Assembly (NCBI GenBank): GCA_045640525.1
Contig: JAZUFE010000007.1
Span: 1,008 to 65,007 of the forward strand
DNA: 64,000 nucleotides
Source: Lachnospiraceae bacterium
GTDB lineage: Bacteria; Bacillota; Clostridia; Lachnospirales; Lachnospiraceae
Direction: 5' to 3'
Part shown: in pieces, positions 47,203 to 63,847 of the stretch
How the letters are laid out: the number at the start of each line of letters is the position of its first letter
Numbering within the stretch: position 1 is the first letter of the stretch
Made by a program: the position numbers and the translations under genes
The notes under the pieces: model-generated
The model's database searches: none
Seen by the model: only the letters and a program-made list of their open reading frames with translations
Told to the model about the DNA's origin: nothing

Positions 47203-47234
47203 AATCGCCAATATGCCTAAGCACACTGGCGATT
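47203..47234 (-). terminator. Candidate terminator of the pilus operon
   Basis: AATCGCCA (47203-47210) pairs with TGGCGATT (47227-47234), with a 16-nt loop that has some internal pairing. On the minus strand TTATTTGAAAATT follows. It lies 22 nt after the stop of the giant gene. Confidence 0.45.
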
Positions 47235-47255: not shown

Positions 47256-50200
47256 TTATTCAAGTTCAAACAACTGAGCCGCACTTATACTTAATCCCGA
47301 CATACGCTCGGTTGCGGGAAGCTCATCATATGTGCCGTCAACCATGGCCCCTTCGGTTCCGATTCTGATATAGAACTCATTCAAATCGTCTCCCAAAATA
47401 CCTGTACCGAAGTTAATATCACCAAGCGAGAAGTACGTCTGGTATATCTTATAGTTGGTCAAAACATCCGATGCAACGAGCGTCCTGGTTCCGTCACCCG
47501 CAACCTGATAGAAGCCCTTGGAAGAGGCGGGAGTAACCCTCTTATAATACTTGTTACCAATAGTAAGTGTAGCCTCACCGGGATTTTTAACCTGCACATA
47601 ATATGCCGCATATATAGGCTTACCGCTGTCTTTGAAGTTATTGTTCATAACCTTAAAGTTAACCGTAAGATACTCATCAAGCCAGCGTCCCGTCGTCGAA
47701 TCGGAATCGGCATCCTCCATATCTTTGGCCATCTGCACATCGTAAGGAAGAATAGATGACTTAATTTCCGGAGCCGACTCCCACGGATTAGCCTTAAATA
47801 CAACTCTGGGAGCATGTAAACCGTTATTGTATGCTGCAATCAGCGTGTTAACGAAAAGTTTTCTCTCCTGATCGGAGCTGACCGCACTGTGTCCGGAACC
47901 TGTATAAACAACATTTCCTTTACTGAAAATATAGTAATTGTTTCGTACATCATTAGGGATAGCCCTGTAATATCTGTGAGATGGCGTATATCCATCGGTT
48001 GATTCAATATTGTTGCTTATCGTGTACCATACCACAACATCATCATTGGTATTGTCATCCAATGAATCCGTATCCAGATTAAGCTGGAAATACTGCGCAT
48101 GCGTTGCTGCCACGTTGAAAGTATCTCCCACATTCTGCGTAATAAGGAACGGATACTGGGTTATCTGTCCGTTGTTAACTGCCGTAACCGTCTCAACCTC
48201 GCTCGTATTGGTACCCGTAGATTGGTATGCCTTAAGATTGGTAGCTTTTAATGAAGTATTACCGTATCCCGTAGTTTGAGCGAATCTGTTACTGTCACTT
48301 TCATTCATACCCGTCTTTTCAACCTCATCCCCCTTAAGCTTGGCATAATCATATACCGATTTATACTCACCTACGGTAACACCCGGGCGGTCGAATTTGT
48401 ATGTATTATCACTAAAGTTCAAGACATTGAATCTGTCCATACCCTGAATATCACGCCAGAAATTATTGGCATAATATCCCCATGCATCCATACCCGTTCT
48501 GTGCGAACTAAGGTCATGGGTAAACAATATGCTTCGTCCGGACAGCGCATATTCTCTAATTGCCAGAGCAGCGTCATGATATATATCACGACGATTCATC
48601 CAGCCGTTACCCGCTACATAAACCGTATCCCAGTTAAGGTGATCCGCATCCATATTAAATCCGTACATATCGGTGAATCCGAGCACTACCATATCAAACT
48701 GGCAAAGATAATCGTAATACGAATACTTAGACTGATCGGATGCCGAGCCGTCCGAGTTGGTACCATACTTAATCAAATACTGGAATACATCCTTGGTGGT
48801 AACCTGAACGTCAAAGTCTTCAACCTGGTTATAAAGATAGTCCATAGCCGCATTTGACAGATTGAAGGTATTGGTCTGATTAACCGGTACTATCTGAAGT
48901 ACCTTAACAATCGGCCGCTGACCTTCCGCCGGCACTGCGGAATAACCCGTAATAGCGCTTCTGACACTCGTCTCGTCCGAATCCGAAGTCTGTGTCTTCT
49001 TTTCGTTTTGAATGAATGCCAATTTCCACGAAATAAATCCTACATAGTCCTCAGGCGTTCTTCTTGAAATATTGTATGTATTTCCGGCATAAAGATGGAA
49101 CTTACCGTCCGAAGTATCCTGTCCCTCGATTTCTATACCGTCCTGAGCCTCGTCTTCTTCGAATTTGCCGTCCGCATCCATATCAAGATACAATTTACAG
49201 TCATATGAAGTTCCTGCCGGATCCAATGCCACATTGTTATTGAGCTTAACCTTATATCTAAGATGATAGAATCCGTCACCTTCTTTGGTCAGATATCTTC
49301 CCTGCGAATCGGTTCCGTCGTTATACGCCTGAGGCTTCTCCAAAACCTCGAGCTCAAGCTTCGAAATATTCACATACTTAATGAAGTCACTTCTGTTGGT
49401 ATCATATCCTCGCTGCTCTACCTCAAGTGCACCCTTTCGGAATACGTTCTTTCCATAATAAAGATATGAGTCATCCTTCTTGGCCAGTACTACATCCTTA
49501 ATGAATTCATACATATGAGAAGAGCTGTCAACTCTTGATGTATTTATATCTTTAATGGTTCCGTCATCATTAAGATTAAAGAAGTCATCCGAAACAAGCA
49601 CAGCATAACCAGCACGCACATATTCGGTCAATTCTCTTAACTTATCACTTGTAATATCATTTCCTGCGAATCTTACGTCCTTCGTATTGTCTTCAAAATT
49701 GGCATTAACCTGATCACCAACATGAGCATAAACAAGTCCGTTCATTCCCGAATTATTATAAACAGTAGTAAATTTCTCGGAATTAAGAGCCGTATTCATC
49801 AGCATCTTATCCATACCGATGTATATCATGTCATAAGTTGCGTTAAGATCGTCATTATGACCGATGAATTCCTTGGTACCCATCTGCGTAACAGTGATAT
49901 CAAACTCATCCTTCTCCTCATCCGTAGGATTAATAAGATTGGTCAATACCCAGTCTTTACTGATGATGTCACGATACTTGGCATTATATATATCTTTGCT
50001 CTTATTGACACTGTCGGTATCATAAGTAGCTATATTATTCGAATCGGTTAAATAGTTCTGGTCCTCATACTGCGAAGACTGATACGGTTCAATATCCAAA
50101 ATATTAAGTTTAGTTTTAACAACATACCTGTTATTATTGGCATTCAGAATGTATCTGATACTTGTTGCCTTGGATATGGCGGAGTTAAAATCATCCCATT

Positions 50201-52940
50201 CACCGTATGTTTCGATAATAGGTCTTTCATTATCGTATTCGTTTTGAATCTCATCAAAACCGTGTATGCTCTCAAGCTTACCGTCCGAATATGCGGAATT
50301 GAAATTCGGAGCTATTATCTTCGCATTGGTATCGGTAGATACGTGTCCTTGTTCATTAACCGTTCCGTCATCATTGTATGTAGTATCTACCCAGTCATCG
50401 TTAACAAATACCGTTCCGCATACGAAGCTCACATCTTTATCATCCAGCACATCTCGGATTGAATAACGCATGCTTTTTAGTGAGCTTGACCTGTGAGTAC
50501 TTATGTAATTATCAATTCCATACTGTTCGGGGTGATCCTCATCTGCCGGAATAATATCAGAATTGGGTCTGTTGGCGAAATTATCGATGGTATTGTCAAC
50601 AGAATAAGATACCGTTCCCGTCAACGCTGCCCAGTCTTCTTCACTGATACTTTTCTTGTTGCTTTGCATTAATGACATGGCAAGAAGTGTCAGGTTGACC
50701 CTTTCGGAATTGGCATTCATATCATCGTCATCTGCGAACGCAACGGTAAAATCACTACGCTTATCAAGATTGGCATAATATGTGGACCTCTCCATTGCTA
50801 CCGGGAAGTTATCCTCAACTACCTTATTCAAAATCTTCCGTCCTACGGAAGCCGAAATATCTTCAGTATATCTGCCGCCTGCAAAATATATCAAATCAGC
50901 TTCGCCCAATTCGTCATCGGACAGTTCACTGAGCATTTGAGCAGTAATGGGCTTAACGTCTATATACAGATTGTCGCATTGAGAGCCCGAATCTCTGTCA
51001 AATACGAATCTCTTAAACCACTCATTATTGTATATTCCGCCTGCATAAGTAACGGTTTGATAAACCTCCTTCGTGTAATCGGCGTAGAAATTGTAATCCC
51101 CCTCGGGATTGCCCGAACCATCTACCGCATATACATAATCATCCGTTTCGGCAGTTCTGATATAATACGGTCCCTTATCGGTTGCACAGTTACCGCTGTC
51201 ATATGAATCACCGAGTACTTCCGTATATTCTACTCTTCTTCCGAGGAAAGACTCATCATCCTCAACGACACTGTTAATAATAAGACAATCCGCTTCCGCT
51301 TCACTGATTTCGGTTACTATATAGTAATAATACTGAGTACCGTCAGTTACTTCGCCGGGGCCTATGGTTCCGTCGCCGTCATCATCATAGCCGTCTCCGT
51401 CATATAGCATTTCCTCACGGGGAGCAATTCTTCCCGGTGCGGGCACGAAATCTATTTCAAAGCCGGGATTATTATCTATAGGATTACCGTTCGGGTCTGT
51501 TTGATCATTTCCGGTATTCCCGTCGGTACCTGTTCCATCTCCGCCGGTATTTTGATCGCCACCTGTTTCATCGTTTCCGGTATTTCCATCGGTGCCATCA
51601 TCGCCTGTTCCACCATCTCCTTGCGGTACCTGCGTCGGAGACTCACTTGGTGTAGCCGTAGGATTTATATTATCTGTAGGCGTAGGTGTTGCATTAGAAT
51701 CCGGTGTTCCTGTCGGTGCAGGCGATGCATTAGGATCCAATGTCCCCGTAGGTGTAGGCGTAGCGTTAGGGTCCGGTGTTCCCGTAGGTGTAGGCGTAGC
51801 GTTAGGATCCGGCGTACCTGTCGGTGTAGGCGTAGGTCTTGCTAAACTTCTGAACCCACCCATTGATGATAACGAATATGGCGTTGCCGTATACGGGAAA
51901 TCACTGTCATTTCCGTTATATCTTCTCAAAACCAGATTACCGTTGGAAGCCTGCTCTATCTTACCAAAGCTCTCAAGATAATCTCCGTTTGGATTTTCCG
52001 AAATAAATATCCACTGCCCTTCCTCAAGGGTAGTAGAAGCCGTCACCAAAGATGCCTTGAAATACTGCCAGTTATAAATAGGGAGTGTCCGGTCTGTAGA
52101 ACCGTTAACCTCATGACCGCCCTCATCATCTCTGGATTGAATCGGCATAATATCATCGCTGCCCGGCTTCTTAATCTGAATTCTGTATGCACCTGTGTAA
52201 TAGTCACTCTGTTCTCTGTATGCTTCAGTATGTCTGTAGGGAACGTCAATATTATCGGCTTCCCACAAATTGTTGACAGGATAAGTGTCCTTGCCGTCTA
52301 TGGTTCCGGTCGAAGGCTTGATACTGTAATTATAATCACTTGGAGCTTCACCGTAATACTTGGCTTGGAATGCATCGGAATAATCGTTCGGATCATAATA
52401 TCCCGTGTCTGCATCCACACTCTTGAACGTACCTCTTACATCGGTTGTTCTCGAATCCGGAGTAGGATCTTCGGGATTGACCGGAGTAGGTACCGGCTCC
52501 GTATATTTATTCTCTTCGGAGTAAGAATATGCTCCTTCATTCAAAAGAGCTTTGGCCGAGTCGAAATTGAAGTTGGAATCTCCGCTGTGAGAATCCGCAT
52601 AAGGATCGAACTTATTGCCAAACCATCTGTTTCGCTCCCGCTCAGACGGCATATCTTTAATGGATTTACCTTCGTGAATCGGCTCCTCTCCGCCAACAAG
52701 ATAACCTAGCGAAGCATCCGCAAGGTTGGGAACAACTTCATAAATGATAAACGGGTTAGGCGCTTCGTCACCGCTCTTTTGCGTATGCTCACTGACAATA
52801 TCCTCGATACCTCTTAAGGTAACGCGGGCATAAGCCTTATCGGAATTAAAATAGAGCGCACCTGCAACCGTCGTTGCCAAAAGAGCAACAGCCACACCCG
52901 ATGCCAATATTCTGTTTCTAAGCTTATGAGATACTTTCAA
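47256..52940 (-). CDS. Giant (~1,895 aa) secreted or N-terminally anchored protein of unknown function; last gene of the pilus operon
   Basis: Uninterrupted ORF 47256-52955. There is no in-frame ATG near the 5' end. The TTG at 52940 is preceded by GGAGAG with a 7-nt spacer, giving MKVSHKLRNRILASGVAVALLATTVAGALYFNSDKAYA (signal peptide or signal anchor with an AYA site). It has no prepilin motif and no LPXTG. It contains Pro/Thr and Gly/Asp/Thr/Asn linkers, EF-hand-like loops, and recurring (I/V)L(D/Q/E)(I/V)xP ... D(L/M)(I/V)(Y/V)xG modules. Only 5 nt separate the ORF from the upstream gene. Confidence 0.8.
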   Translation of the reverse strand: MKVSHKLRNRILASGVAVALLATTVAGALYFNSDKAYARVTLRGIEDIVSEHTQKSGDEAPNPFIIYEVVPNLADASLGYLVGGEEPIHEGKSIKDMPSERERNRWFGNKFDPYADSHSGDSNFNFDSAKALLNEGAYSYSEENKYTEPVPTPVNPEDPTPDSRTTDVRGTFKSVDADTGYYDPNDYSDAFQAKYYGEAPSDYNYSIKPSTGTIDGKDTYPVNNLWEADNIDVPYRHTEAYREQSDYYTGAYRIQIKKPGSDDIMPIQSRDDEGGHEVNGSTDRTLPIYNWQYFKASLVTASTTLEEGQWIFISENPNGDYLESFGKIEQASNGNLVLRRYNGNDSDFPYTATPYSLSSMGGFRSLARPTPTPTGTPDPNATPTPTGTPDPNATPTPTGTLDPNASPAPTGTPDSNATPTPTDNINPTATPSESPTQVPQGDGGTGDDGTDGNTGNDETGGDQNTGGDGTGTDGNTGNDQTDPNGNPIDNNPGFEIDFVPAPGRIAPREEMLYDGDGYDDDGDGTIGPGEVTDGTQYYYYIVTEISEAEADCLIINSVVEDDESFLGRRVEYTEVLGDSYDSGNCATDKGPYYIRTAETDDYVYAVDGSGNPEGDYNFYADYTKEVYQTVTYAGGIYNNEWFKRFVFDRDSGSQCDNLYIDVKPITAQMLSELSDDELGEADLIYFAGGRYTEDISASVGRKILNKVVEDNFPVAMERSTYYANLDKRSDFTVAFADDDDMNANSERVNLTLLAMSLMQSNKKSISEEDWAALTGTVSYSVDNTIDNFANRPNSDIIPADEDHPEQYGIDNYISTHRSSSLKSMRYSIRDVLDDKDVSFVCGTVFVNDDWVDTTYNDDGTVNEQGHVSTDTNAKIIAPNFNSAYSDGKLESIHGFDEIQNEYDNERPIIETYGEWDDFNSAISKATSIRYILNANNNRYVVKTKLNILDIEPYQSSQYEDQNYLTDSNNIATYDTDSVNKSKDIYNAKYRDIISKDWVLTNLINPTDEEKDEFDITVTQMGTKEFIGHNDDLNATYDMIYIGMDKMLMNTALNSEKFTTVYNNSGMNGLVYAHVGDQVNANFEDNTKDVRFAGNDITSDKLRELTEYVRAGYAVLVSDDFFNLNDDGTIKDINTSRVDSSSHMYEFIKDVVLAKKDDSYLYYGKNVFRKGALEVEQRGYDTNRSDFIKYVNISKLELEVLEKPQAYNDGTDSQGRYLTKEGDGFYHLRYKVKLNNNVALDPAGTSYDCKLYLDMDADGKFEEDEAQDGIEIEGQDTSDGKFHLYAGNTYNISRRTPEDYVGFISWKLAFIQNEKKTQTSDSDETSVRSAITGYSAVPAEGQRPIVKVLQIVPVNQTNTFNLSNAAMDYLYNQVEDFDVQVTTKDVFQYLIKYGTNSDGSASDQSKYSYYDYLCQFDMVVLGFTDMYGFNMDADHLNWDTVYVAGNGWMNRRDIYHDAALAIREYALSGRSILFTHDLSSHRTGMDAWGYYANNFWRDIQGMDRFNVLNFSDNTYKFDRPGVTVGEYKSVYDYAKLKGDEVEKTGMNESDSNRFAQTTGYGNTSLKATNLKAYQSTGTNTSEVETVTAVNNGQITQYPFLITQNVGDTFNVAATHAQYFQLNLDTDSLDDNTNDDVVVWYTISNNIESTDGYTPSHRYYRAIPNDVRNNYYIFSKGNVVYTGSGHSAVSSDQERKLFVNTLIAAYNNGLHAPRVVFKANPWESAPEIKSSILPYDVQMAKDMEDADSDSTTGRWLDEYLTVNFKVMNNNFKDSGKPIYAAYYVQVKNPGEATLTIGNKYYKRVTPASSKGFYQVAGDGTRTLVASDVLTNYKIYQTYFSLGDINFGTGILGDDLNEFYIRIGTEGAMVDGTYDELPATERMSGLSISAAQLFELE
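51675..51839 (-). repeat. Tandem 36-nt (12-aa TPTPTGTPDPNA) coding repeats, about 4.5 copies
   Basis: Residues 373-427 of the giant ORF read RPTPTPTGTPDPNATPTPTGTPDPNATPTPTGTLDPNASPAPTGTPDSNATPTPT. Near-identical 36-nt units are visible in the DNA (GTAGGTGTAGGCGTAGCGTTAGGGTCCGGTGTTCCC on the plus strand). Confidence 0.9.
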
Positions 52941-52960
52941 AACTCTACTCTCCAAACTGA

Positions 52961-55486
52961 CTACTTATTATAAGTTCCGTTAACAATCGTATATTCACGC
53001 ACATCCGAATTGGTATCCGTGAACTTGGCTGTTACATAATTGCCCTTGCCGTCGCAGATACGACATACCCATATGAAGCTCCTGGGTACTTTTTGCGAAC
53101 TGATCCAATCCTTCGGATGCATCTTAAGATAAAGATATAATCTGTTATCTATCTGCTCGTTAAACTTAAATGCAGCTTCATAGCCTTTAGAAACCTTAAA
53201 GGTTCCGTACCATTCGGTTTTGGTGCTAAACAAATTCTTATCGTAACTGTTGTTTCCATAGAACAGCCATCCTGCCGAAGTTCCGTCCGAGCGGTCCAAC
53301 GTAGGATTAGCCAATCCCGTAGACTGATAATTGTTTATCAGACCTAAGTTCTTGCCATAATTCAAATAAGTTACCGACAATCCCGTAAAAGTAGGATTAA
53401 ACACCTTGTAATAATATGTTGCGGCATCACCGTCCCAGCCAACGCTGTGCTTTTGGGTTCCGACCGTCATGGTTGTTGTAAATACGGAATCCAAATCCTT
53501 ACCGGAGGCATTCTGCTGATCCTTAAATACCACATAGGTAGGTTCAAGCATTACCTCTACCTTATCCATCTTAACCAGTATCGATGCCGTGTAGGCTTCA
53601 TTCTTGTTACCGGTCGTTATTTTATTAAACTCCATGGAATCATCACTCGGAAGTTTGAAATACTTGGCATTATTCTTAAATTGCTCTATATTGTTTCCCG
53701 CATATCTTTGTGTATGGGGATTATATATCTTCATACGAAGGTTAACTCTGTAGGTAAACGTCTCAGACCAGTCTGTTTGAGGTTCAACATATACGAAGAT
53801 ATCTCTTGCCGTCTGGGCAGATACGTACGTCTTACCATTTCCGAGTTTATTACCGTTTCTGTCACAAAGATATACCAAATCGTCGAATTTGGTTCTGTCC
53901 TTCTTACTGTTCTTATTCCAATTGCCGCATGAGTTATCATCATAAGTCAATTCCCACTCAAGGAAATATACACAACTGATATCGTTGGCATAACCATATC
54001 TTCCATATCCACCGTACGTAGGAGCACCCTGAGTCCAGAATCCGTACAAAGGATTAGCCATACCTCGGTTGGCGGTTTCGGAACCGCCGATAACGGGAAC
54101 TGTCATTTCCTTCTTGGTCGGAACGGCACCTTTGGGAATTGTTAATTCGATAACATCCGTTACCGCTTCGCCTTCAGCATCACGCTGATTTACCGTAACC
54201 GTAATTACATAAGTATGCTCTTCCATCGATTTGGTTACAAGAAACTCTCCGTTAACAGCATCGGTCGAAGTGAAACCTGCACCTCTGGGAATAGTATCAT
54301 CTGCAGTTTTACCCGTAACCGTATAGGAAATCTTCGAATAAGCGCCCTCGCCCTTAAGCGGATTGACCATCTTGCCGTCAACAGGATTTTTTACCTTGGC
54401 CGTATATGTAATTTCATGTGCGAACGTATAAAGAAGTTGTCCGTTGATTATATCCTTAAGTTCCGTATACGAAGATGTAATGGAAACCGGATATACACCG
54501 TCGGAAGTTACTTTAATTCTAAGTTTCGCCTGAACCTTGGGGTCTTCATTCGAGCTTGCCACTATTGCAAAATACTTTCCGTTCATGTAATCTTCGGGAC
54601 GTTTGGTTATCACGCCTGCGGAATTGGTTACATTCTTAACTGTTACATGACCGGAAGCATCAATGCTGATGCATTCCTCATAGCCTTCTTTCAAGGTTGT
54701 GATATCAAGTGACCATGTTACGGATTTATCTATTTCTTTATCATAAGATTTCTTCTTAGTAACAACAGCTTCATACGTAGCGGTGGTTGAATTACCTGCC
54801 ATTGCTATGGTATCCGTCTTACCCTGGCTAAACGCATGACCGTCTCTTGAAATGATTACGTTGGCAACATGAGAATAGAATTCTGTTGTCTCCTTCTCAT
54901 AATATTCACTCAGCTTCTCGTCGGATGTGGCATCAATCTTGGAAATCATATTTCTAAGTGCCACCAGGGTAGTTACTTTAACTTCCTTATCATCTATTTT
55001 GAAGGTTATATCTATCGTAACCTTACCGTTCTCAATGTCCGAATCGTCAACCTCAAATGCCGAAACGCAATCTGATAGAACACTGGTAGGTCCCAAGTCG
55101 GAAATACTTGAAATCACCGTTGTATCAGGCATATTAACGTGTTCCTTAATCATCAGCTTATTATCCGCAGCATTAAGGCTGATTTGAGATACCGAGCACA
55201 TATCAGACGGTCCTGTAGCATCGGGATTGTCACTAAATACCAAAAGTCTTTTGGTCGTAGTATCAAAAGACAGTCCACGACTTGTTTCAAGCACTATGTC
55301 CCTCACCCGGTTTACACATACCTGCTGGTCATACTGAAGCTTCACATTTTCGTTTGACACCGTGTAGTTCTTGGAACAAAAAGATACAAACGCACAAATA
55401 GCAATCCCCACAATAGCAAGGATTGCAACTGCAACAATTAATTCGACCAAAGATAGTCCTCGATTGTTCTTTAGCGTTTTCTTCAT
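52961..55486 (-). CDS. Large (841 aa) pilin-like protein with a prepilin N-terminal cleavage/methylation motif and Ig-like module(s)
   Basis: The N-terminus MKKTLKNNRG|LSLVELIVAVAILAIVGIA has Gly at -1, Glu at +5 and a hydrophobic alpha-1 helix. An internal segment SVTWSLDITT...ISIDASGHVTVKNVTNSAGV...AKLRIKVTS resembles a bacterial Ig-like (Big_2-type) domain. The C-terminal part is Trp/Tyr-rich. Confidence 0.8.
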   Translation of the reverse strand: MKKTLKNNRGLSLVELIVAVAILAIVGIAICAFVSFCSKNYTVSNENVKLQYDQQVCVNRVRDIVLETSRGLSFDTTTKRLLVFSDNPDATGPSDMCSVSQISLNAADNKLMIKEHVNMPDTTVISSISDLGPTSVLSDCVSAFEVDDSDIENGKVTIDITFKIDDKEVKVTTLVALRNMISKIDATSDEKLSEYYEKETTEFYSHVANVIISRDGHAFSQGKTDTIAMAGNSTTATYEAVVTKKKSYDKEIDKSVTWSLDITTLKEGYEECISIDASGHVTVKNVTNSAGVITKRPEDYMNGKYFAIVASSNEDPKVQAKLRIKVTSDGVYPVSITSSYTELKDIINGQLLYTFAHEITYTAKVKNPVDGKMVNPLKGEGAYSKISYTVTGKTADDTIPRGAGFTSTDAVNGEFLVTKSMEEHTYVITVTVNQRDAEGEAVTDVIELTIPKGAVPTKKEMTVPVIGGSETANRGMANPLYGFWTQGAPTYGGYGRYGYANDISCVYFLEWELTYDDNSCGNWNKNSKKDRTKFDDLVYLCDRNGNKLGNGKTYVSAQTARDIFVYVEPQTDWSETFTYRVNLRMKIYNPHTQRYAGNNIEQFKNNAKYFKLPSDDSMEFNKITTGNKNEAYTASILVKMDKVEVMLEPTYVVFKDQQNASGKDLDSVFTTTMTVGTQKHSVGWDGDAATYYYKVFNPTFTGLSVTYLNYGKNLGLINNYQSTGLANPTLDRSDGTSAGWLFYGNNSYDKNLFSTKTEWYGTFKVSKGYEAAFKFNEQIDNRLYLYLKMHPKDWISSQKVPRSFIWVCRICDGKGNYVTAKFTDTNSDVREYTIVNGTYNK

Positions 55487-55491
55487 GAATA

Positions 55492-56115
55492 CTAACTTTC
55501 TATTTTATGTGTTCCGACCTCGGCATCAAATGTTATGGTATATGTTCTGACGCCGCTTTCGAATGTCATCTTGGTAATCACACCATCTCCCGAAGAAGAC
55601 CATGTTCCGTCCGCCGAAGATGATGTACCGGACATAGTACCCATCTGAGCATTTTTAAGTTTGCCCGATTTTCTGTCAAACTCAAGCATGATTCCGGTAG
55701 TTCCGTCATTCTTGATTTCATAATCTGTGCCGCCTATCGTAGCTTTAATCGTTACCTTCTTGGCACCTATTCTTGAATATTCCGAATCTCCGATCGGTTG
55801 TACGATGGTTGTCGTATTATCTATGGTTTCGATTCGCTTATCGGCATAGAAACCGGGAGAATCAATACCCTTTTGGGCATAAGCATCCTCGTCGCCGCTC
55901 GGAACGTCAATATAATAAATATACATGCACTCCGAAGCTCTGCTCATGGCTCCTGTCTTAATATCATTAAGCTGAGCATCCATACTCTTGCAGGCAGAAC
56001 GGGCTTCAACACCAAGAAGCATCGAAAGTCCGAATATTGACCCCCCTATTAGAACAGCCATAATGGCAATAACTACAATTAATTCAATTAATGATAATCC
56101 TCTGTTATCTTTCAT
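55492..56115 (-). CDS. Minor pilin-like protein (207 aa)
   Basis: The N-terminus MKDNRG|LSLIELIVVIAIMAVLIGG is a canonical prepilin motif with Glu at +5. Confidence 0.85.
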   Translation of the reverse strand: MKDNRGLSLIELIVVIAIMAVLIGGSIFGLSMLLGVEARSACKSMDAQLNDIKTGAMSRASECMYIYYIDVPSGDEDAYAQKGIDSPGFYADKRIETIDNTTTIVQPIGDSEYSRIGAKKVTIKATIGGTDYEIKNDGTTGIMLEFDRKSGKLKNAQMGTMSGTSSSADGTWSSSGDGVITKMTFESGVRTYTITFDAEVGTHKIES

Positions 56116-56133
56116 CTAATTACCAATCACGTG

Positions 56134-58533
56134 TTATTTGTGTGCAGATACATCAACGCTCTTCGTCCAGTTCTCAAACTTAACCAAATCCTCAAGCTTG
56201 ATTTCTTCCGTATTGCCGTTCTTCTTGGAAATATATCTGACCTCATCCATATCTCTGAATACATCGGCTACCGTATATACATGAGTTTCCTCATCCTCTA
56301 TGAACATGCACTCGTTAACAAGCTCATCATTCGCCTTGAATTCGAAATTGCCGGAAGGAACGTTAATCTTACCCTTGGCAATAATCAATCCCTCAAACTT
56401 GGATCCTGTGAGTGTTACATCCCCCGTTGAAACTACCAAGTGTACATCAGGATCTGATACGGTTACATTGGCATCCTTAATAATTGCCTTATTACCGCTT
56501 ATTTCGAAGGTTCCATCCATCTCCTTAAGCATTTCTTCATTAATTACGTTATTAAACAATGCCTTATTATCGTCATCAGCAGGATAAGAAGTTCCTGTTC
56601 CCTCTACTTCATATGCGCTTCCTCGCTGATATACATCGGTCAGAGAATCCAAATACGGTGTCAGCTTGGTGCTGTATCCTGTGAACTGCTCCGAATAAGA
56701 TTGGAAATCGTCTTCAAACGAATCGGTTATCGAATCAAATTCCGTTCCCGGAACTTTCAGATATCCGACCGTATTTCTGTCCTTCTTGCCGTCTCCGTCC
56801 AAGTCTGCGGTATCGGCTACAATGTTTCCGGCTATATTCAATCTCAATGCCAAATCCGATGATGACGGAATTGTTATTGCATCAAGATAAACTCTCATAT
56901 AATTATCTACTGCATCTTTATTCACACCATAGTACTTGGCAAAGTACAAATTGGCTGCCTCTTCGTCTTTAAAGTGCATATAAAGATATACCATGGTCTC
57001 CGAAGCTGTTGAAGGTCTGACAAATACTGTCTTAAAGTCGTCATCCTCCATGAATTGACCAAGTGTATAGACATCACCCAAAACGGATACCGGCTTGTTG
57101 GTTGCCACCATTGTCAGGGTATCATCGCCTTTAATATCATTAAATTCCTCATATGTAAGAGGATTCTTGTTATACTTTGAAAAGCCTTCGGCATTAACAC
57201 CGATACAATCTGTCGGAACCAGATACATAAGCTGATCCGCCTTGGCTGCAATTGACTGACCTACGTATACCTGCATGCTTTCGGTTGTATCCAGCGTATC
57301 CGAAACCACACCGATTTTCTGATTGGCCTTGGTCTTGTTTCCGGCCTTGTCCTTGGTATTGGTTCCTATATAAGCATGACCTGCCAGATTCAGTTTCTTG
57401 ATTGCCGACAAATCAAGTGTTGTATTCTTACCGTTGACAAGGATTGCCGAACTCTTGGATCCCTCTGTAATTGAATTACCGTATCCAAGATAGTAATCCT
57501 TGATGGTAACTATACAATCCTTACCTTTGATATTCAGGTCATCCTGCACATATGAATAACCTGCCAGGGTGACATTCGAGCTTTCGGCTACAATATCGTC
57601 CGTCCATAGGGTAGAGGCTTCATATGTGGTAAGGCCTCCGTTTTTGATATTCATGGATGTTGCAACTATATGTTTATCATCACCTGTTGCTGTAGGCTTA
57701 TACTCGAGCTTACCGCCTATATCATTAACGGCATAGGCGAACGAATTACCCTGTATTGTTACGGTTGATGCCGTTCCTTTATTGGTACCGAGATTTCTTA
57801 TTTCAAGCGCCGTATCGGTTATGAAAGTATAGTTGCTGATTTCCGGCATAACCGGATTATCAAAGCTAAACTCCGGGTATATCAAATGAATATCCGTCTT
57901 AACCGAAGATACGAAACCGTTCGAATCTCTGTAGTAAACTACCAAATCCTTCAAAATGATACCGCTTTTAGCGTCCTCTTTGATATCGCCTGTGTAATAT
58001 TGGGCAGAAGAATCGGTTGTATTGGCACTTGAACGAATGAACGCACCGTACTCGGTCGAAACATCCCCTGTCTCATGCCATCTTGTTGAATCTTTAACGA
58101 AACGATACAGTCCCTCAGTCGGATTGGTTGCCGTTAAGTCAACCGGCATTGCTACGTACTTCTTCGTGTCGGAAGGAAGTGCCAGCATACCTTTAATGTA
58201 CTCATAGAACTTAACCTTAACCAGTTCATTCTTCTCATCCGAAGTTGTTTCATCCAAATCATACTGAGTCAGCACCGATGAATAGGCACTGCCGAGTGCA
58301 TCGGAAACCATCTGCTGTAATCCTACCTGAATTTCGTCAAGTACAACTTCGGCCGAATAGAACGAATCCTTGGCATAAACATTCACGTTACGCATCTTGA
58401 AGTTAACCGCAGATGAAAGCAGAAGAACATTCACCAAAACGACAACAAAACCAATAGCCACGATAACCGTCACTATTGATAAACCTTGGTTGTTACATAT
58501 TCTTTTGTTAATTTTCTTAAACAAATTAACCAT
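56134..58533 (-). CDS. Large (799 aa) pilin-like protein lacking Glu+5 (PilX/GspK-like position)
   Basis: The N-terminus MVNLFKKINKRICNNQG|LSIVTVIVAIGFVVVLVNVLLL has Gly at -1 and a hydrophobic helix, but Thr at +5 in place of Glu. There is an internal DLDGDGKKD (DxDxDG) loop. Confidence 0.7.
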   Translation of the reverse strand: MVNLFKKINKRICNNQGLSIVTVIVAIGFVVVLVNVLLLSSAVNFKMRNVNVYAKDSFYSAEVVLDEIQVGLQQMVSDALGSAYSSVLTQYDLDETTSDEKNELVKVKFYEYIKGMLALPSDTKKYVAMPVDLTATNPTEGLYRFVKDSTRWHETGDVSTEYGAFIRSSANTTDSSAQYYTGDIKEDAKSGIILKDLVVYYRDSNGFVSSVKTDIHLIYPEFSFDNPVMPEISNYTFITDTALEIRNLGTNKGTASTVTIQGNSFAYAVNDIGGKLEYKPTATGDDKHIVATSMNIKNGGLTTYEASTLWTDDIVAESSNVTLAGYSYVQDDLNIKGKDCIVTIKDYYLGYGNSITEGSKSSAILVNGKNTTLDLSAIKKLNLAGHAYIGTNTKDKAGNKTKANQKIGVVSDTLDTTESMQVYVGQSIAAKADQLMYLVPTDCIGVNAEGFSKYNKNPLTYEEFNDIKGDDTLTMVATNKPVSVLGDVYTLGQFMEDDDFKTVFVRPSTASETMVYLYMHFKDEEAANLYFAKYYGVNKDAVDNYMRVYLDAITIPSSSDLALRLNIAGNIVADTADLDGDGKKDRNTVGYLKVPGTEFDSITDSFEDDFQSYSEQFTGYSTKLTPYLDSLTDVYQRGSAYEVEGTGTSYPADDDNKALFNNVINEEMLKEMDGTFEISGNKAIIKDANVTVSDPDVHLVVSTGDVTLTGSKFEGLIIAKGKINVPSGNFEFKANDELVNECMFIEDEETHVYTVADVFRDMDEVRYISKKNGNTEEIKLEDLVKFENWTKSVDVSAHK

Positions 58534-58536
58534 ATC

Positions 58537-59928
58537 TTATTCCAACAATGTTCCGGTAAGTTCTACCGCTACCGGCCACTCATCACCCGTCGTCGGCTTT
58601 TCAACCGTTACGGTAACATCATATATTCTGTCGGTAATGGTTGATGCATCCAACGTCTTACCGTCCGTAGTCTGTGCATTAAGGGCTTTTGATGCACTTT
58701 CATTCTCGAAAGAACCCTTCTTATTTTTAATTCGATTCCAAACCGTGGGTGTAAACACGGCTGTCGTAGAATCCGGATCCGATGTCGGAGAACCGATATT
58801 CAAATAACACTGCACCGGAACCTGTGCGGAAGTATCCGTCTTTAAATACTCCAAATCAGCGGAATCATATAAGTTGGTACGCAAAAGAATCGGTTGCTTA
58901 TCACCACCGTTTTCTTCATCCTCAACTTCGTTTTCGTATATTTCCAATATCAATCCGCCCTTGGCAGACTGTTTACGATAGTCTTCCCAAGCTTCCGAGC
59001 CGTCATTTTGTGCCACAACATACAAATCTGCTTCAACCGAATCGTGATTATGAACGATTATGATATCTCCGCCTTCTTTGGCTGTCTCATAGTTAGGTTG
59101 ATACATGATAAAGACAGACCTGAACGGAGCCTTGGAAGATGCATTGTTGAATATCTGTTTCTTTAAGGCAACATATGAAACCTTATCATCATCCACTACT
59201 TTCGGATCATTGTCACTTAGCAGATATGATATGGTTGCATAAACAGAAACCTTATCTATTGTATTACCGTCAGCATCTACCATAGTACCTACCTTGTCTA
59301 TATCAATGCTGATTTCACGATATAACTTTCCTCTGAAACCCGAAGCCGTTACTGTATCCGTCGTCGGATAAATATGCTGATACGCCTCGTTCCTCTTTTC
59401 AAATTCACGGCAGGCCTTCTCTTCATATACATCCTTGAAAATGCCCGGCGTTCCGTCGGAATTCACCGATTTGGGCATGTTCAAAATGGCTGCGGTCTTC
59501 GCCGATACGGAATCAAATTCCGACAGATTGACCGCATTGGCATTCTTGTAGAATTGCGGGTCAATCTCTATCTTTACATTAAAGCCCTTGGAAAGAGCTG
59601 AATTAACTTCACTGTCGTACGCCGTAAATGTACCGCCCGCAACGCCCGTGATGTTAAGTGTATATTTACCGTTACCATCCAAAGTGGCTGATTCGGTACC
59701 GTACTTTTCAACCACTCCCGCGCGTGTAAGTGTCTTCATATCTTCCATGATATTTTCGGCAGCGTTCGTGGCATACATCTTATATTTGGATTTGGAAGTA
59801 GTCTGTGCCGAAGAAACAAAGGCGTGCAAAACCGGAATGCTGACAATTGCAAGTATAATAACCGCAATCAGCACCTCTAAAAGAGTAAAACCGGAATTAT
59901 TCAATTGGCCTTGATTCTTTTGGTCCAT
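58537..59928 (-). CDS. Large (463 aa) minor pilin-like protein (PilV/GspI-like N-terminus)
   Basis: The N-terminus MDQKNQGQLNNSG|FTLLEVLIAVIILAIVSIP is a canonical prepilin motif. It is the first of four consecutive pilin-like genes. Confidence 0.8.
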   Translation of the reverse strand: MDQKNQGQLNNSGFTLLEVLIAVIILAIVSIPVLHAFVSSAQTTSKSKYKMYATNAAENIMEDMKTLTRAGVVEKYGTESATLDGNGKYTLNITGVAGGTFTAYDSEVNSALSKGFNVKIEIDPQFYKNANAVNLSEFDSVSAKTAAILNMPKSVNSDGTPGIFKDVYEEKACREFEKRNEAYQHIYPTTDTVTASGFRGKLYREISIDIDKVGTMVDADGNTIDKVSVYATISYLLSDNDPKVVDDDKVSYVALKKQIFNNASSKAPFRSVFIMYQPNYETAKEGGDIIIVHNHDSVEADLYVVAQNDGSEAWEDYRKQSAKGGLILEIYENEVEDEENGGDKQPILLRTNLYDSADLEYLKTDTSAQVPVQCYLNIGSPTSDPDSTTAVFTPTVWNRIKNKKGSFENESASKALNAQTTDGKTLDASTITDRIYDVTVTVEKPTTGDEWPVAVELTGTLLE

Positions 59929-59940
59929 TACTAAACTACC

Positions 59941-60792
59941 TTATGCTGCGGGAACATCTTCGGGTGCCAATTCATCCTGAAGGTCCTCGGGGGTTACAGG
60001 GGTTGCATCCACTTCGTTCTCAACCGGTGCATCTGCAGGGTTCGTAAGTAAAGATACAGTATCCGCTCCTGTATGGAATACATCGCTCAATCCCTTAGGT
60101 ACAGCAGGAATGAATGTAGGAACATACTCTTTTTCAAGACCTTCTATGTAGTAAAGTTCTACTCCAACTGCTCCTGTCAAATAGCCTGTTTCCTCATCAT
60201 AATATATCTCGAATCCGATAATGGAATTCTTATTGGTCTGGCTTGTGATGTAATTGATCATATACTTAAGTCCGTTGTAAGTACATGCGAAATTCATAGC
60301 CATCGGCGCTCCGAAAAGCTTATACTTGGCGCTGATATCATCTACCTGCTCGTCAAGGAAATATTCCTTTCCGTCTTCTTCGGTAATAATATCAACGTTT
60401 TCAAGGCTTTCCCCATCAACTCCTGCCACATAAACGGCATCATCGACTTCTCTTATTTCCAAATCTCCGAAGCGAAGTTCAAGAGGAAGCGCCGTATCAA
60501 TGTTAGCCCAGAACATCATCAAATCTTCTGTGCTGACCAGTGCCGGATATCTATCCGTAATCTCTGCGATTTTGGCTTCTGCCGTTGTGATTCCTTCTTC
60601 ATACTCATCAAGTCTGGACATTATTGACTGATATTGCTCGGCTTTCGCTGAAAGCGTCACATTTTCTGCTTCAACAGCCGCAAGTTCTTCTTTCATGGGA
60701 CTTACTATCAAGAACCAAACAACTACCAAAATCAGTACTCCGAGTACTCCTATAAGTAAATTTTTCTCTTTAGGTCCAATCTGCATATTCAT
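59941..60792 (-). CDS. pilO: Type IV pilus assembly protein PilO-like
   Basis: The likely start is MNMQIGPKEKNLLIGVLGVLILVVVWFLIVSPMKEELAAVEAENVTL at 60792, 1 nt after the upstream stop; the ORF track extends to 60864. TM segment plus coiled coil plus ferredoxin-like C-domain, in the position expected for PilO. Acidic C-terminal tail. Confidence 0.75.
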   Translation of the reverse strand: MNMQIGPKEKNLLIGVLGVLILVVVWFLIVSPMKEELAAVEAENVTLSAKAEQYQSIMSRLDEYEEGITTAEAKIAEITDRYPALVSTEDLMMFWANIDTALPLELRFGDLEIREVDDAVYVAGVDGESLENVDIITEEDGKEYFLDEQVDDISAKYKLFGAPMAMNFACTYNGLKYMINYITSQTNKNSIIGFEIYYDEETGYLTGAVGVELYYIEGLEKEYVPTFIPAVPKGLSDVFHTGADTVSLLTNPADAPVENEVDATPVTPEDLQDELAPEDVPAA

Positions 60793-60793
60793 C

Positions 60794-62614
60794 TTATAGG
60801 CCCTCCTGTGCATTAGCATCTTCGGCTTCATCGCCCTCTTCTTCGTATGGTGCGAAGTAGGCATCTATAGTAAAGCCATAGAGGATTTCGCCCAAATCGT
60901 TTTCAAGTAAAGATACCGATGTAACCTCTGCCGAAGAGAACATCTCATTCTCTTTAATCTTCTTAAGTACGGACGCTGTTTCTTCCTTGCTGCTGACCGT
61001 AAGATCCAAGGTTACCTTCTCCATATCCGATTCTATACTGTTAAGGCAGAACGAATAAGGCATCTCTTTTTCAAGATATGCTATTAACTCATGCATTTCA
61101 TTGTTTCTGTTTTCACCTGCATTATCCAAGCCTTCAAGATATTCAAGGTTGGCCATGTTTTCAAGATATTCTTTATATGTTTCAACTGCAGGTTCACAAT
61201 CGGCTATTGTCTTTTCATAGCCTGCCTTCAGGTCTTTGGCCTCGTTAAGAGGTATCCATGTAAGAAGGAAAAGAAGTGCTGAGGCAACCACACAAATAAG
61301 GAAGACGCCCAATGCAATGATTGTATTTCTTCCGTCATTGGCACCTGAAGAAGACGAACCCTTCTTGCCTTCGTCGTCATGATCCTTATAGAAATTAATG
61401 GGAGCAATTGTAGCACCGATAACGGTTACATATTCTCCGTAAGAAACATCCTGGAAAACCTTCTCTGCGTCAATACCTGCAAGATGTGTAAGATTCTTAA
61501 CCTTAATTCCGAGCTCATTGCTAAGAAGGTTCTGCAATCCGGAGAAGTCAGCACCGATACCCGTAATGAAAGCTCTCTCGATAGGTCTTGATGAATGATT
61601 TGAGTTATAATAATCGATTACTCGCAAGATACCGCCGCCAAGAGTTCTTAATGACTGGGTAACGGCCTGTTTCTCGATTCTGATCTGTGTAGCCTCTGAA
61701 TCGTCCTCTTGAGCGTCAGCCTCTGTCGGGCCTCCGTCGAAGCTTGAAAGAATGACTGTCTTACGTCTTGCCACTTCAATGGCATCATTATAAGTAGTCA
61801 TAGGACCAAGTGTCTTGGTATCAAGCAATGTACTAACGGCTTCATCGATACCGTAAGAAATTGTACGGTTCAATGTAATAGCGCCATCCTCGGTAACCAT
61901 CAGCAACGAGTTCTTCTCATCAATCTTAACGATTAACTGAACACCCTTTTGAGCCTCTTCTCTGGCTGCCTGATAAATAGAGTTACCGTTATAATCAATT
62001 GAAACAATATCCAATGTAAGAGCCTTGGCAAGTCTCTCATATCCTGCAATCAACTGCTTGGGAGCTGCCAAAACCATAAGCTTATAGCCTGTGGGCTTAG
62101 CCTGCTTGGTAAGTTCCGCCTTAGCAGCTTTAGACTTCTTGCCTGCGTCCTTGGCGTTCTCGGTGTTCTCACCCTCTTCGCCGTTTTCGGAATCCTCTTT
62201 GTCCAAATCTATTATAGGAAGTGAAGGTGCATCTTCTCTTACAAGACCAATAATTGAATGGCTGAACATATATTGGTTGGGATCTATCGGGAAATAGTCC
62301 GTAAGATTAGCCCTTACAATATCCTGGAGCTGCTTTTCCTTAACGAAAGGAACAACAACTTCTCTGGTAGCTATCTTACTGCTGGCAATTGTAAAGATAA
62401 CTTTTCTCGTCTTAATCTTGTTATCATTCAGAATTGATTTGAATGTGTTGGCAAATACATCGTTGGTATCAACCATACCGTCGGTAATCATACCCTCGGG
62501 GGTCGAAATAACGAAGCTGTTGAAAATCTTATTATGTCCGTTGGTGTTGCGTTCAACCTCGCACACCTTAGTAAAGAGATAGCCAATCTCAATACTTAAT
62601 ACTCTTTCAGCCAT
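60794..62614 (-). CDS. pilMN: Fused PilM (actin-like ATPase fold) - PilN type IV pilus assembly protein
   Basis: 606 aa. The N-terminus VLSIEIGYLFTKVCEV, then ...VLAAPKQLIAGYERL and ...FITGIGADFSGLQNLL, fit PilM. A TM segment (NTIIALGVFLICVVASALLFLLTW) follows near residue 430, and then a PilN-like domain. The PilM part carries an acidic/Lys-rich insertion DLDKEDSENGEEGENTENAKDAGKKSKAAKAE. Confidence 0.8.
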   Translation of the reverse strand: MAERVLSIEIGYLFTKVCEVERNTNGHNKIFNSFVISTPEGMITDGMVDTNDVFANTFKSILNDNKIKTRKVIFTIASSKIATREVVVPFVKEKQLQDIVRANLTDYFPIDPNQYMFSHSIIGLVREDAPSLPIIDLDKEDSENGEEGENTENAKDAGKKSKAAKAELTKQAKPTGYKLMVLAAPKQLIAGYERLAKALTLDIVSIDYNGNSIYQAAREEAQKGVQLIVKIDEKNSLLMVTEDGAITLNRTISYGIDEAVSTLLDTKTLGPMTTYNDAIEVARRKTVILSSFDGGPTEADAQEDDSEATQIRIEKQAVTQSLRTLGGGILRVIDYYNSNHSSRPIERAFITGIGADFSGLQNLLSNELGIKVKNLTHLAGIDAEKVFQDVSYGEYVTVIGATIAPINFYKDHDDEGKKGSSSSGANDGRNTIIALGVFLICVVASALLFLLTWIPLNEAKDLKAGYEKTIADCEPAVETYKEYLENMANLEYLEGLDNAGENRNNEMHELIAYLEKEMPYSFCLNSIESDMEKVTLDLTVSSKEETASVLKKIKENEMFSSAEVTSVSLLENDLGEILYGFTIDAYFAPYEEEGDEAEDANAQEGL

Positions 62615-62644
62615 TTTCCCTCTCCTTAAATGCCTTCTTTTCTA

Positions 62645-63406
62645 TTAAAATCCCAGTACCGACATGTACCAGGAAATCATTTCGTTTCCAAACAATACTG
62701 CAATCAATATTCCCGCACTTAGGTACGGTCCGAAAGCAAGCTGATGATCTGCTTTCGATATTCTCATTCGAGCCACATGAATTATGGCTCCCAAAACGCA
62801 TCCTAATAAGAATGCAAGAACTATATTTTTCCACCCGAGCATAAGCCCAGCTGCTGCCATGAGCTTCATATCTCCGCCGCCCATGCCACGACCTTTGGTG
62901 GCCAGTATAATGATAAAGATAAACACACTGACAGCAAAGAAGCCGATTACGTGATTAATCCAGTCTTCATAATGAATTACAGTCATAATCAGCCCCAGCG
63001 TCAGTATAAAGATATTGATTCCGAGCGGAATCTCATACGTCCTCCAGTCTATTACGCTAAGCGTAATAAGTGCTGATATTAACAGGCAGTAGAGTAGGGA
63101 ATCTACATTTACCCCGTTAATAATAAAAGTAATTACATAAAGCACCCCGTTCAGTCCCTCAATAAGAGGGTACTGAACAGATATATGTGCTTGACAGTGG
63201 CGGCACTTGCCGCCCTGGACCAAATAGCTAAACAACGGTATCAACTCATACCATTCAAGCTTGTGGCCACAGCTCATACAATGAGACCGTGTCTTAACAA
63301 TATTCTCTTTTAGCGGTATGCGATAAATACATACGTTGAGGAAACTACCAATCACTATGCCGTAGAGGAAGGTGATTGCATAGATTAAAATTAGTATTGG
63401 GTCCAT
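62645..63406 (-). CDS. pilD: Prepilin peptidase / N-methyltransferase (peptidase A24, PilD)
   Basis: 253 aa. Motif GSFLNVCIYRIP, Cys pairs CMSCGHKL...GKCRHC, and the two catalytic Asp contexts SVIDWRTYEIP and GMGGGDMKLMAAAG. Confidence 0.93.
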   Translation of the reverse strand: MDPILILIYAITFLYGIVIGSFLNVCIYRIPLKENIVKTRSHCMSCGHKLEWYELIPLFSYLVQGGKCRHCQAHISVQYPLIEGLNGVLYVITFIINGVNVDSLLYCLLISALITLSVIDWRTYEIPLGINIFILTLGLIMTVIHYEDWINHVIGFFAVSVFIFIIILATKGRGMGGGDMKLMAAAGLMLGWKNIVLAFLLGCVLGAIIHVARMRISKADHQLAFGPYLSAGILIAVLFGNEMISWYMSVLGF

Positions 63407-63421
63407 AAATCGTTTTAAATA

Positions 63422-63847
63422 CTAAGAAACTTTTGTTCCGTCCTGCTTATATGTAGAACCCTTAGCAGTTGTTGATGTTGTCCATTGATAGTTCTTATAT
63501 TTCCAAATAATATCACCATCCCAGGTTGCTTTCAAAGCGGTAGGCTTAGAATCGTCAATACCATATTCTTTTAAATCTTTACCTGAAGGTAAGCCTGAAA
63601 CTTTAATGTTCTTTGAAGTCATGCTTGCTGTTACAGTTATTTCAGTAGTTGGTGATAACTCATTATCAGCCGCAAATGATTCTACGGCTGTCTTAACCTC
63701 AGTAATATTCTGAAGATCTGTAGACTCTCTAGACTGAGCCACATATTTAATAAACTGAGGTGCTAAAACACCAATCAATACTGCCATGATAGCAATAACG
63801 ATGATTAACTCAACGAGTGAAAAACGTTTGTTTGAATTCTTTTTCAT
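63422..63847 (-). CDS. pilA: Type IV pilin (major-pilin candidate, 141 aa) with a non-canonical residue at -1
   Basis: ATG at 63847, preceded by AAGGAG with an 8-nt spacer. The N-terminus MKKNSNKR|FSLVELIIVIAIMAVLIGVLAPQFIKYV has Phe at +1, Glu at +5 and a hydrophobic alpha-1 helix. The codon at -1 is CGT (Arg), not Gly. The ORF track extension to 63985 was rejected. Confidence 0.8.
   Translation of the reverse strand: MKKNSNKRFSLVELIIVIAIMAVLIGVLAPQFIKYVAQSRESTDLQNITEVKTAVESFAADNELSPTTEITVTASMTSKNIKVSGLPSGKDLKEYGIDDSKPTALKATWDGDIIWKYKNYQWTTSTTAKGSTYKQDGTKVS

Follow-up and report, generated by a model that had tools for sequence, protein, structure and literature searches.

A giant DUF5057 protein encoded at the end of Lachnospiraceae type IV pilus operons is a candidate pilus-tip partner of the minor pilins

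Introduction

The last gene of a type IV pilus operon in a Lachnospiraceae bacterium encodes a protein of 1,894 amino acids (aa) that belongs to the family DUF5057. The operon lies in a window of 64,000 nucleotides (nt), by which we mean the whole stretch of DNA analysed here (GenBank assembly GCA_045640525.1, contig JAZUFE010000007.1, positions 1,008 to 65,007), and the giant gene occupies 47256..52940 of this window on the minus strand, as do all other features whose window coordinates are given below. We propose, with a probability of about 50%, that the giant is a non-pilin accessory protein of a Gram-positive type IV pilus and a non-homologous analogue of PilY1, PilC and MshQ. This analogy, drawn from sequence, is put forward because the Sec signal of the giant, its position after the minor pilin genes, its pattern of variation, its calcium-type loop and its C-terminus match the profile of a tip protein.

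The gene is real and, by its sequence, encodes a secreted-type protein of an uncharacterised family. The functional hypothesis, the operon rule and the domain map for DUF5057 are new here, and the Pfam number already existed; literature searches returned no paper naming DUF5057 and no description of its function, of an operon rule or of a domain map. An earlier note on the same DNA, made from the sequence without database searches, had left the position of the gene at the end of the pilus operon unexplained, and, as judged from the sequence comparisons, that position is the most informative feature of all. Residue numbers count from the TTG at 52940 and are therefore 5 lower than those of the earlier note.

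Results

Operon position and export signal

A gap of 20 nt separates the last pilin gene from the start of the giant gene, and a terminator-like hairpin with a T-run (47203..47234) lies 3' of the giant gene at the end of the pilus operon, with a promoter-like site for topA also located downstream. Gene order was compared across 65 loci with a complete giant open reading frame (ORF) from Lachnospiraceae, Oscillospiraceae and Acetivibrio genomes. In about 61 of these, a PilM-like gene, a PilO-like gene and four pilin-like genes are followed by the giant, mostly with gaps of less than 60 nt, and the operons surveyed carry one giant gene each. Four metagenomic contigs (L001-L004) keep the same order down to 24% identity. 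That the gene order persists across families at this level of divergence speaks for a functional link and against co-transcription by chance.

The only hydrophobic segment of the giant spans aa 10-31, with K/R residues before it and A-Y-A (aa 36-38) after it, in agreement with the Sec-signal-like N-terminus ending in AYA that the earlier note had described; we annotate aa 1-38 (52827..52940) as a Sec-type signal peptide or signal anchor. This layout, a K/R-rich stretch followed by a hydrophobic one, is found in 66 of 67 homologues, none of which has a second hydrophobic segment. An A-x-A after the hydrophobic segment, scored with a loose pattern, is present in 36 of the 67, essentially those that keep the adjacent TLxGIE, a motif conserved in the closer relatives, and cleavage of the signal would take place after A-Y-A. 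Motif and hydrophobicity scans also bore out the absence of a prepilin motif, of LPXTG and of a C-terminal transmembrane segment. A type IV pilin was rejected on the lack of a G/[FML]xxxE motif before the hydrophobic helix (here and below, a slash marks the cleavage site) and of any N_methyl match, and a sortase substrate on the lack of an LPXTG-like motif and of a C-terminal hydrophobic segment. If cleaved, a protein of ~200 kDa that lacks any anchor would have to be held by a partner.

Conserved C-terminus, calcium-type loop and variable insertion

Two AlphaFold2 monomer models were built from a 71-sequence alignment, one of aa 1-1200 (mean predicted local distance difference test score (pLDDT) 77, predicted template modelling score (pTM) 0.65) and one of aa 695-1894 (mean pLDDT 85, pTM 0.78), and the domain layout was read from secondary structure and confidence. 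The N-terminal segment (aa 2-36) is modelled as a single helix. At the other end of the protein lies a modelled C-terminal beta-sandwich (aa 1716-1894, 47259..47795), the least conserved folded domain, whose best-conserved spot is its terminal peptide LSISAAQLFELE (aa 1883-1894, 47259..47294), ending in L-F-[DE]-L-[DE]-COOH. All 67 homologues end at the same position and 64 fit this pattern. Residue by residue, the last five positions are L (58/67), F (54/67), D/E, L (66/67) and D/E/K, carrying 3.6, 3.2, 2.0, 4.2 and 2.5 bits of information, respectively, compared with a mean of 1.43 for the C-terminal domain.

Two EF-hand-type loops are present in the giant. One lies at aa 519-530 and had been listed in the earlier note; the other, DMDADGKFEEDE (aa 1253-1264, 49149..49184), had not been listed, is canonical and sits in a beta-sandwich referred to here as domain B (aa 1195-1337, 48930..49358), which was delimited from the model and has immunoglobulin (Ig)-like sandwich matches in Foldseek. 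The family consensus of the domain-B loop, D-x-[DN]-x-D-G-[KR]-[FY], is calcium-type by sequence. By inspection, its D-x-[DN]-x-DG core is retained in nearly all 67 homologues, with exceptions in L017 and L061, and the full 12-residue EF-hand pattern in 40 of them.

Variation is concentrated towards the N-terminus. A conserved N-terminal piece (aa 39-160, 52461..52826; pLDDT 88-96) carries PFIIYEVVP, the first strand of an alpha/beta module whose remaining strands follow only from aa 641 onward, in the part named M1. The strand-1 motif [IV]LE[IV]VP and the M1 strands occur in essentially all 66 homologues compared, where they lie between 115 and 905 aa apart; with both ends universal, the first module is therefore split by an insertion. 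The earlier note had suggested such a split, by an insertion of about 550 aa, and the cross-genome comparison and the register of the M1 strands support it. The insertion (aa 161-640, 51021..52460) is, from the sequences compared, the hypervariable part of the family.

In the giant, the model and the repeats divide the insertion into a first all-beta domain (aa 161-342), a disordered PT/GD-rich repeat linker (aa 343-533) that contains the loop at aa 519-530, and a second all-beta domain (aa 534-640). The low-complexity linkers that had been noticed by eye correspond to real tandem repeats at the DNA level, one of 36 nt in 4.4 copies (51676-51835) and one of 33 nt in 2.9 copies (51497-51591). 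Strain-level substitutions and the change in repeat copy number fall mostly within aa 1-883. The 36-nt PT-rich repeat differs in copy number between strains, with database protein P0107 lacking one 12-aa unit (aa 370-381). When 34 variable inserts were scanned with Pfam, SHIRT stalk domains in the inserts of two homologues were the sole result; one homologue carries a Laminin_G_3 domain.

Gene model and family

The open frame at 47256..52955 is one uninterrupted stretch of 1,899 codons, and the 5.7-kb ORF described in the earlier note is real. A non-ATG start at 52940 had been preferred there, and three observations agree with it: a ribosome-binding site, GGAGAG (52948..52953), read from the sequence 7 nt upstream of this TTG; the length of database protein P0001, which is 100% identical to the giant and whose 1,894 aa fit a start at the second TTG; and the homologues, which start at an equivalent M-K/R-rich N-terminus. 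The stop codon of the upstream gene (52961-52963) lies just before the ribosome-binding site, and the base composition of the giant gene is that of its neighbours. A split or frameshifted ORF was ruled out, as full-length orthologues of 1,250-2,420 aa in more than 60 genomes exclude a frameshift artefact.

The giant does belong to a recognisable family, contrary to what had been concluded from the sequence by eye. Pfam PF16480 (DUF5057) matches it at 150.1 bits (gathering cut-off 27.9; E 1.5e-43), and relatives are already named in databases as 'DUF5057 domain-containing protein [Lachnospiraceae bacterium]'. PF16480 also matches 35 of 36 homologous segments of M3, the third alpha/beta module. 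The match covers only aa 1094-1431 (48648..49661), from the end of the second module (M2) through domain B to the start of M3, and therefore cuts across three structural domains. Scans of the giant with the NCBIfam and PHROGs libraries gave no match, Pfam searches of the whole protein at E<=1 returned nothing beyond DUF5057 and one chance match, and a PDB sequence search with the whole protein matched the low-complexity PT linker only.

In order to measure the extent of the family, aa 1336-1894 were used as the query of an exhaustive search, which yielded 1,279 homologue clusters at 50% identity (E<=1e-3). In nearly all of these clusters the protein has 1,300-2,300 aa and is matched close to its C-terminal end. 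When one genome per species was screened, relatives turned up in at least 327 species, and the best 80 of these are nearly all Lachnospiraceae, with a few Oscillospiraceae and Acetivibrio; Blautia, Agathobacter, Roseburia, Coprococcus catus, Anaerocolumna, Anaerosporobacter, Acetatifactor and Waltera are represented among these 80.

Repeated modules, fold class and the conserved M3 motifs

The conserved core of the giant consists of domain B and three alpha/beta modules. M1 (aa 641-935, 50136..51020) contributes strands 2-4 (LYIDVK, LIYF, PVAM) and a helical region; M2 (aa 936-1194, 49359..50135) is marked by ILDIEP, ITVTQMGT, YDMIYIGMD and AGYAVLVSDD; and M3 (aa 1338-1715, 47796..48929), the most conserved, by VLQIVP, FDMVVLGF and SGRSILFTHD, with NNGQITQYPF, ATHAQY, VVVWY, RNNYY and KGNVVYTGSGHS as further motifs. 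The recurring strand signatures on which the earlier note had remarked go beyond chance. Profile alignment of M2 (aa 936-1200) with M3 (aa 1336-1715) gave an hhalign probability of 93.7% (E 2e-7; 72-89% with other alignments), pairing VLDIEP with VLQIVP, ITVTQMGT with DVQVTT, YDMIYIGMD with FDMVVLGF, and AGYAVLVSDD with SGRSILFTHD. M1 aligned with M2 at 28-81%, depending on the alignment, and weakly with M3 (10-19%). Together with the alternation of strands and helices in the models, these alignments uphold the idea of repeated alpha/beta modules, which share a b1-b2-b3-helix-b4 core.

In the comparison with M2 and M3, NLYIDVKPIT of M1 pairs with their strand 2 and not with their strand 1, so that M1 has no local first strand. 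PFIIYEVVP of the N-terminal piece is in register with strand 1 of both modules, although not significantly when taken alone (E 0.05 and 0.27), and the alignment of a chimeric profile joining the N-terminal piece to M1 did not extend to strand 1.

A flavodoxin-like three-layer alpha/beta fold is likely for the modules as modelled, and a class-I amidotransferase-like fold is possible. Foldseek searches against the PDB used the whole 1,200-residue models as queries, with no query ranges reported, and gave weak matches to the ThuA-like structure 1t0b (E 0.3) and to PfpI proteases (E 0.6-0.9, 24-25% identity over ~100 columns). CTP synthase was matched at E 0.0038 (probability 0.97) by the C-terminal model and at about 0.5 by the N-terminal one. 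Pyridoxal phosphate enzyme/aminotransferase and SGNH-esterase domains score like the amidotransferase-type folds. The top matches of the C-terminal model, multi-domain glycosidases aligned at template modelling (TM) scores of 0.1-0.2 and root-mean-square deviations above 20 Å, were set aside as Ig-domain noise.

The resemblance to ThuA and class-I glutamine amidotransferases (GATases) that the earlier note had suggested did not carry over to family membership. Neither the whole giant nor 36 homologous M3 segments matched ThuA or any GATase family in Pfam at E<=1, the M3 profile had no match in a PDB sequence search, and a distant-homologue search with that profile returned only DUF5057 fragments. 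Motif scans of 50 kb of pSymB and of all collected loci for a ThuA sequence to serve as a reference in profile comparison found nothing. The six Cys residues of the giant (552, 585, 655, 841, 1248 and 1413) include none at the strand-4 elbow and none that is invariant.

Conservation is highest in M3, with a mean information content of 2.38 bits and 24 invariant columns in 36 diverse homologues. The invariant residues include H, D, R, R, N, T-H-x-Q, W, N, Y, G-x-G-H and E. SGRSILFTHD and GNVVYTGSGHS, both picked out in the earlier note, contain an H, D, G, G and H that are invariant across these homologues. Such a set of polar and aromatic residues suggests a pocket. The transglycosylase family SLT_4 (PF19489) gave sub-threshold matches in 5 of the 36 M3 segments (best E 0.0014), which may be chance or, on the sequence, a hint of wall-related activity.

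Neighbouring genes

The candidate major pilin of the operon has 141 aa from ATG 63847 (63422-63847; MKKNSNKR/FSLVELIIV), with Arg at position -1 of its prepilin cleavage site, where Gly is nearly universal, and a Pfam N_methyl match of only E 0.0087. Genes for a PilO-like protein (weak T2SSM match), a PilM-like protein (606 aa) and the prepilin peptidase PilD, assigned with Pfam, occupy 59941..63406. As listed, the PilM-like and PilO-like ORFs (59941-62614) overlap by 71 nt; PilO probably starts at a later ATG, and the PilM-like protein, much longer than plain PilM, may include a fused PilN-like part.

Next come a minor pilin of 463 aa (NNSG/FTLLEV, 58537..59928), a pilin-like protein of 799 aa with Thr for Glu5 and no Pfam match (NNQG/LSIVTV, 56134..58533), a minor pilin of 207 aa (NRG/LSLIEL, 55492..56115) and, directly upstream of the giant, a minor pilin of 841 aa (NRG/LSLVEL, 52961..55486). 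Absence of Glu5 is a trait of GspK/PilX-type tip pilins. Counterparts of the 799-aa protein in many related loci also lack Glu5, and by this feature it, and not the 841-aa pilin that adjoins the giant, may correspond to PilK. The pilin directly upstream of the giant varies from ~180 to 1,380 aa between genomes (examples at L042 2051-6193, L065 4509-8129 and L003 6783-9971), and in some species it is a giant modular pilin.

Directly after the pilus operon come topA, codY and a long flagellar operon (flgB, flgC, fliE, fliF, fliG onwards; 1-47084), an order of pilus, topA, codY and flagella that is also kept in distant relatives, including L002 and L003. A second giant ORF in L001 is unrelated to the DUF5057 giant. 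The loci that depart from the usual gene order are two from Blautia (L037 and L050), in which the giant lies apart from the pil operon, with a single opposite-strand pilin gene ~1.7 kb upstream, and L061 (8414-16832), which carries tandem DUF5057 paralogues of 1,362 and 1,349 aa, both with the C-terminal motif and with no pilus genes nearby.

Discussion

PilY1 and PilC of type IVa pili (Pseudomonas, Neisseria, Myxococcus, Acinetobacter) are, like the giant, large non-pilins with a Sec signal that are encoded directly after the minor pilins and combine a variable N-terminal half, a conserved C-terminal half and a calcium-type loop. Orans et al. (2010) are said to have found that PilY1 function depends on an EF-hand-like site. 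The same dependence is described in Myxococcus (PMC8833165). The PilY1 site lies in a propeller, whereas the loop of the giant, calcium-type by sequence and with a conserved core, sits in a sandwich.

The extreme C-terminus, strongly conserved in the giant, is functionally critical in PilC/PilY1. The last ~10-12 residues of those proteins are needed for pilus assembly, and their end inserts as a beta-strand into a PilK-type minor pilin, which both licenses assembly and keeps the adhesin in place at the tip (PMC13533445). The giant differs from PilY1/PilC in its three alpha/beta modules and beta-sandwiches, in being about twice as long and in its Gram-positive host without a secretin. No Pfam match to the PilC/PilY1 C-terminal domain was found in the giant at E<=1, the model of the C-terminal 900 aa consists of alpha/beta modules and sandwiches with no beta-propeller, and none of the best fold matches is named as a propeller; integrin alpha-V chains among the Foldseek matches of the C-terminal model do contain one, the aligned region not being reported. 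As both a sequence match and a propeller, the features that define the PilY1/PilC family, were looked for and neither was found, the giant falls outside this family, although its mode of action is plausibly similar.

MshQ of the Vibrio cholerae MSHA pilus, likewise a large protein, is a precedent for an unrelated giant in the role of PilY1. MshQ has ~1,200 residues, lies right after pilIJK homologues in a locus without a predicted PilY1 homologue, and is predicted to donate its C-terminal strand in the same way (PMC13533445). The two are likened here by description, not by sequence, and belong to different phyla with different envelopes. CpaL/TadG of Tad pili and the modular pilins PilB/PilC of Streptococcus sanguinis, the latter a Gram-positive example, are also large, tip-associated and put functional modules on a type IV filament, but they are pilins or resemble pilins, carrying either a class III signal peptide or a pilin domain, neither of which the giant has.

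On the tip-protein proposal, the giant would be exported by Sec and its signal peptide cut after A-Y-A, and, having no anchor of its own, it would be held by the four minor pilins encoded upstream, as synteny suggests. The L-F-[DE]-L-[DE]-COOH end could serve as the docking element, perhaps by beta-strand addition to one minor pilin. The complex of giant and minor pilins would then prime pilus assembly and end at the pilus tip, where the hypervariable insertion would display an adhesive or ligand-specific surface. The conserved core, made up of the three modules, the calcium-type loop and the putative M3 pocket lined by invariant His, Asp, Arg, Asn, Gln, Trp and Tyr, would serve a family-wide function, for which ligand binding, perhaps of a glycan, and assembly control are candidates. 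The adhesin-like variation seen at the sequence level, with an insert of 115-905 aa, SHIRT stalks and strain differences in aa 1-883, supports this proposal.

Several points weigh against a tip protein of this kind. The proposed pilin contact is drawn from synteny, the models being monomers, and the giant has neither the beta-propeller of PilY1/PilC nor any sequence similarity to them. The signal peptide might stay uncleaved, which would make the giant a membrane-anchored component. Residues 1878-1889 are modelled as a strand within the C-terminal sandwich (pLDDT ~77-87), and the conserved end could therefore simply be an element of the domain core. The conserved residues of M3 have the look of a pocket for catalysis or ligand binding, which fits a secreted enzyme equally, and a few homologues (L037, L050 and L061) lie off pilus operons.

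Among the alternatives, we consider it unlikely that the giant is a pilus-dependent exoprotein, that is, a Sec-exported soluble enzyme or colonisation factor that is pushed through the wall or released via the pilus and forms no stable part of the tip, much like TcpF and CofJ of type IVb pili or the substrates of type II secretion. A Sec-type signal with no anchor, one such gene per operon and the enzyme-like set of invariant polar and aromatic residues in M3 would all be expected of such a protein, and PMC6048534 describes a secreted protein working with a type IVb minor pilin. TcpF and CofJ are, like the giant, Sec-exported non-pilins encoded in a pilus operon, and they bind a minor pilin; however, they are small, are released and bind via the N-terminus, whereas the DUF5057 protein is a giant with a conserved C-terminus. 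Its position-fixed C-terminal pentapeptide suggests retention and not release, the hypervariable insert, repeat linker and SHIRT stalks are typical of surface-displayed proteins, and export from a Gram-positive cell involves no outer membrane.

A cell-envelope assembly factor seems slightly less probable still. In that case the signal would remain as an uncleaved anchor, and the ectodomain at the base of the machine would help the fibre cross the peptidoglycan, a role taken by the secretin complex in diderms. The passage of Gram-positive pili through the wall is still an open question (PMC6916266), and the 21-residue hydrophobic segment modelled within the helix of aa 2-36, the strict co-occurrence with PilM and PilO and the weak SLT_4 matches in M3 are in keeping with a basal role. 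On the other hand, those SLT_4 matches are below threshold and confined to few members, an A-x-A lies past the hydrophobic segment in the 36 homologues that fit the loose pattern, and a hypervariable insert of 115-905 aa with strain variation would be unexpected in a basal part of the machine. An unrelated surface enzyme that is merely co-transcribed, such as a ThuA-like sugar-converting protein or another protein of class-I amidotransferase fold, is improbable, as a possible resemblance to ThuA motifs and the weak fold matches to 1t0b, PfpI and the CTP synthase amidotransferase domain are set against the lack of a sequence-level link to any enzyme family, a missing nucleophile Cys and the synteny kept across families down to 24% identity.

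A more specific and speculative form of the tip-protein proposal, which we regard as doubtful, would have the giant evolve independently from three degenerate amidotransferase/ThuA-like modules, with M3 catalytic or glycan-specific and the protein locked to the minor-pilin complex through donation of the L-F-D-L-D strand. The likeness to ThuA-like and class-I amidotransferase-like proteins (1t0b, PfpI/DJ-1, the CTP synthase C-domain) consists in a likely three-layer alpha/beta pattern; the giant differs from them in having no hidden Markov model match, no Cys-His-Glu triad and fold E values of 0.004-0.9, and the literature search found nothing linking ThuA with type IV pili. If true, the pilus would carry an enzyme or a lectin at its tip, and licensing by strand addition would extend to Gram-positive type IVa pili through a family related to neither PilY1 nor MshQ.

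A PilY1-type protein is thought to be missing from Gram-positive type IV pili, whose adhesion and tip priming are open questions (PMC6916266). The 2026 paper on strand addition places the origin of large tip adhesins in the lineage of type IVa pili, type II secretion systems and MSHA pili, includes no Gram-positive (clostridial) type IVa pilus in its models, and notes that modelling may uncover further unidentified tip components (PMC13533445). In our literature search, no paper described a tip protein of Lachnospiraceae pili. The DUF5057 family, with over 1,000 sequence clusters, now stands at the PilY1/MshQ position in operons of dominant gut genera, including Blautia, Agathobacter, Roseburia, Coprococcus and Acetatifactor. 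This makes the DUF5057 giant a concrete candidate for the missing Gram-positive tip component, and a candidate determinant of gut colonisation or of attachment to fibre or mucus.

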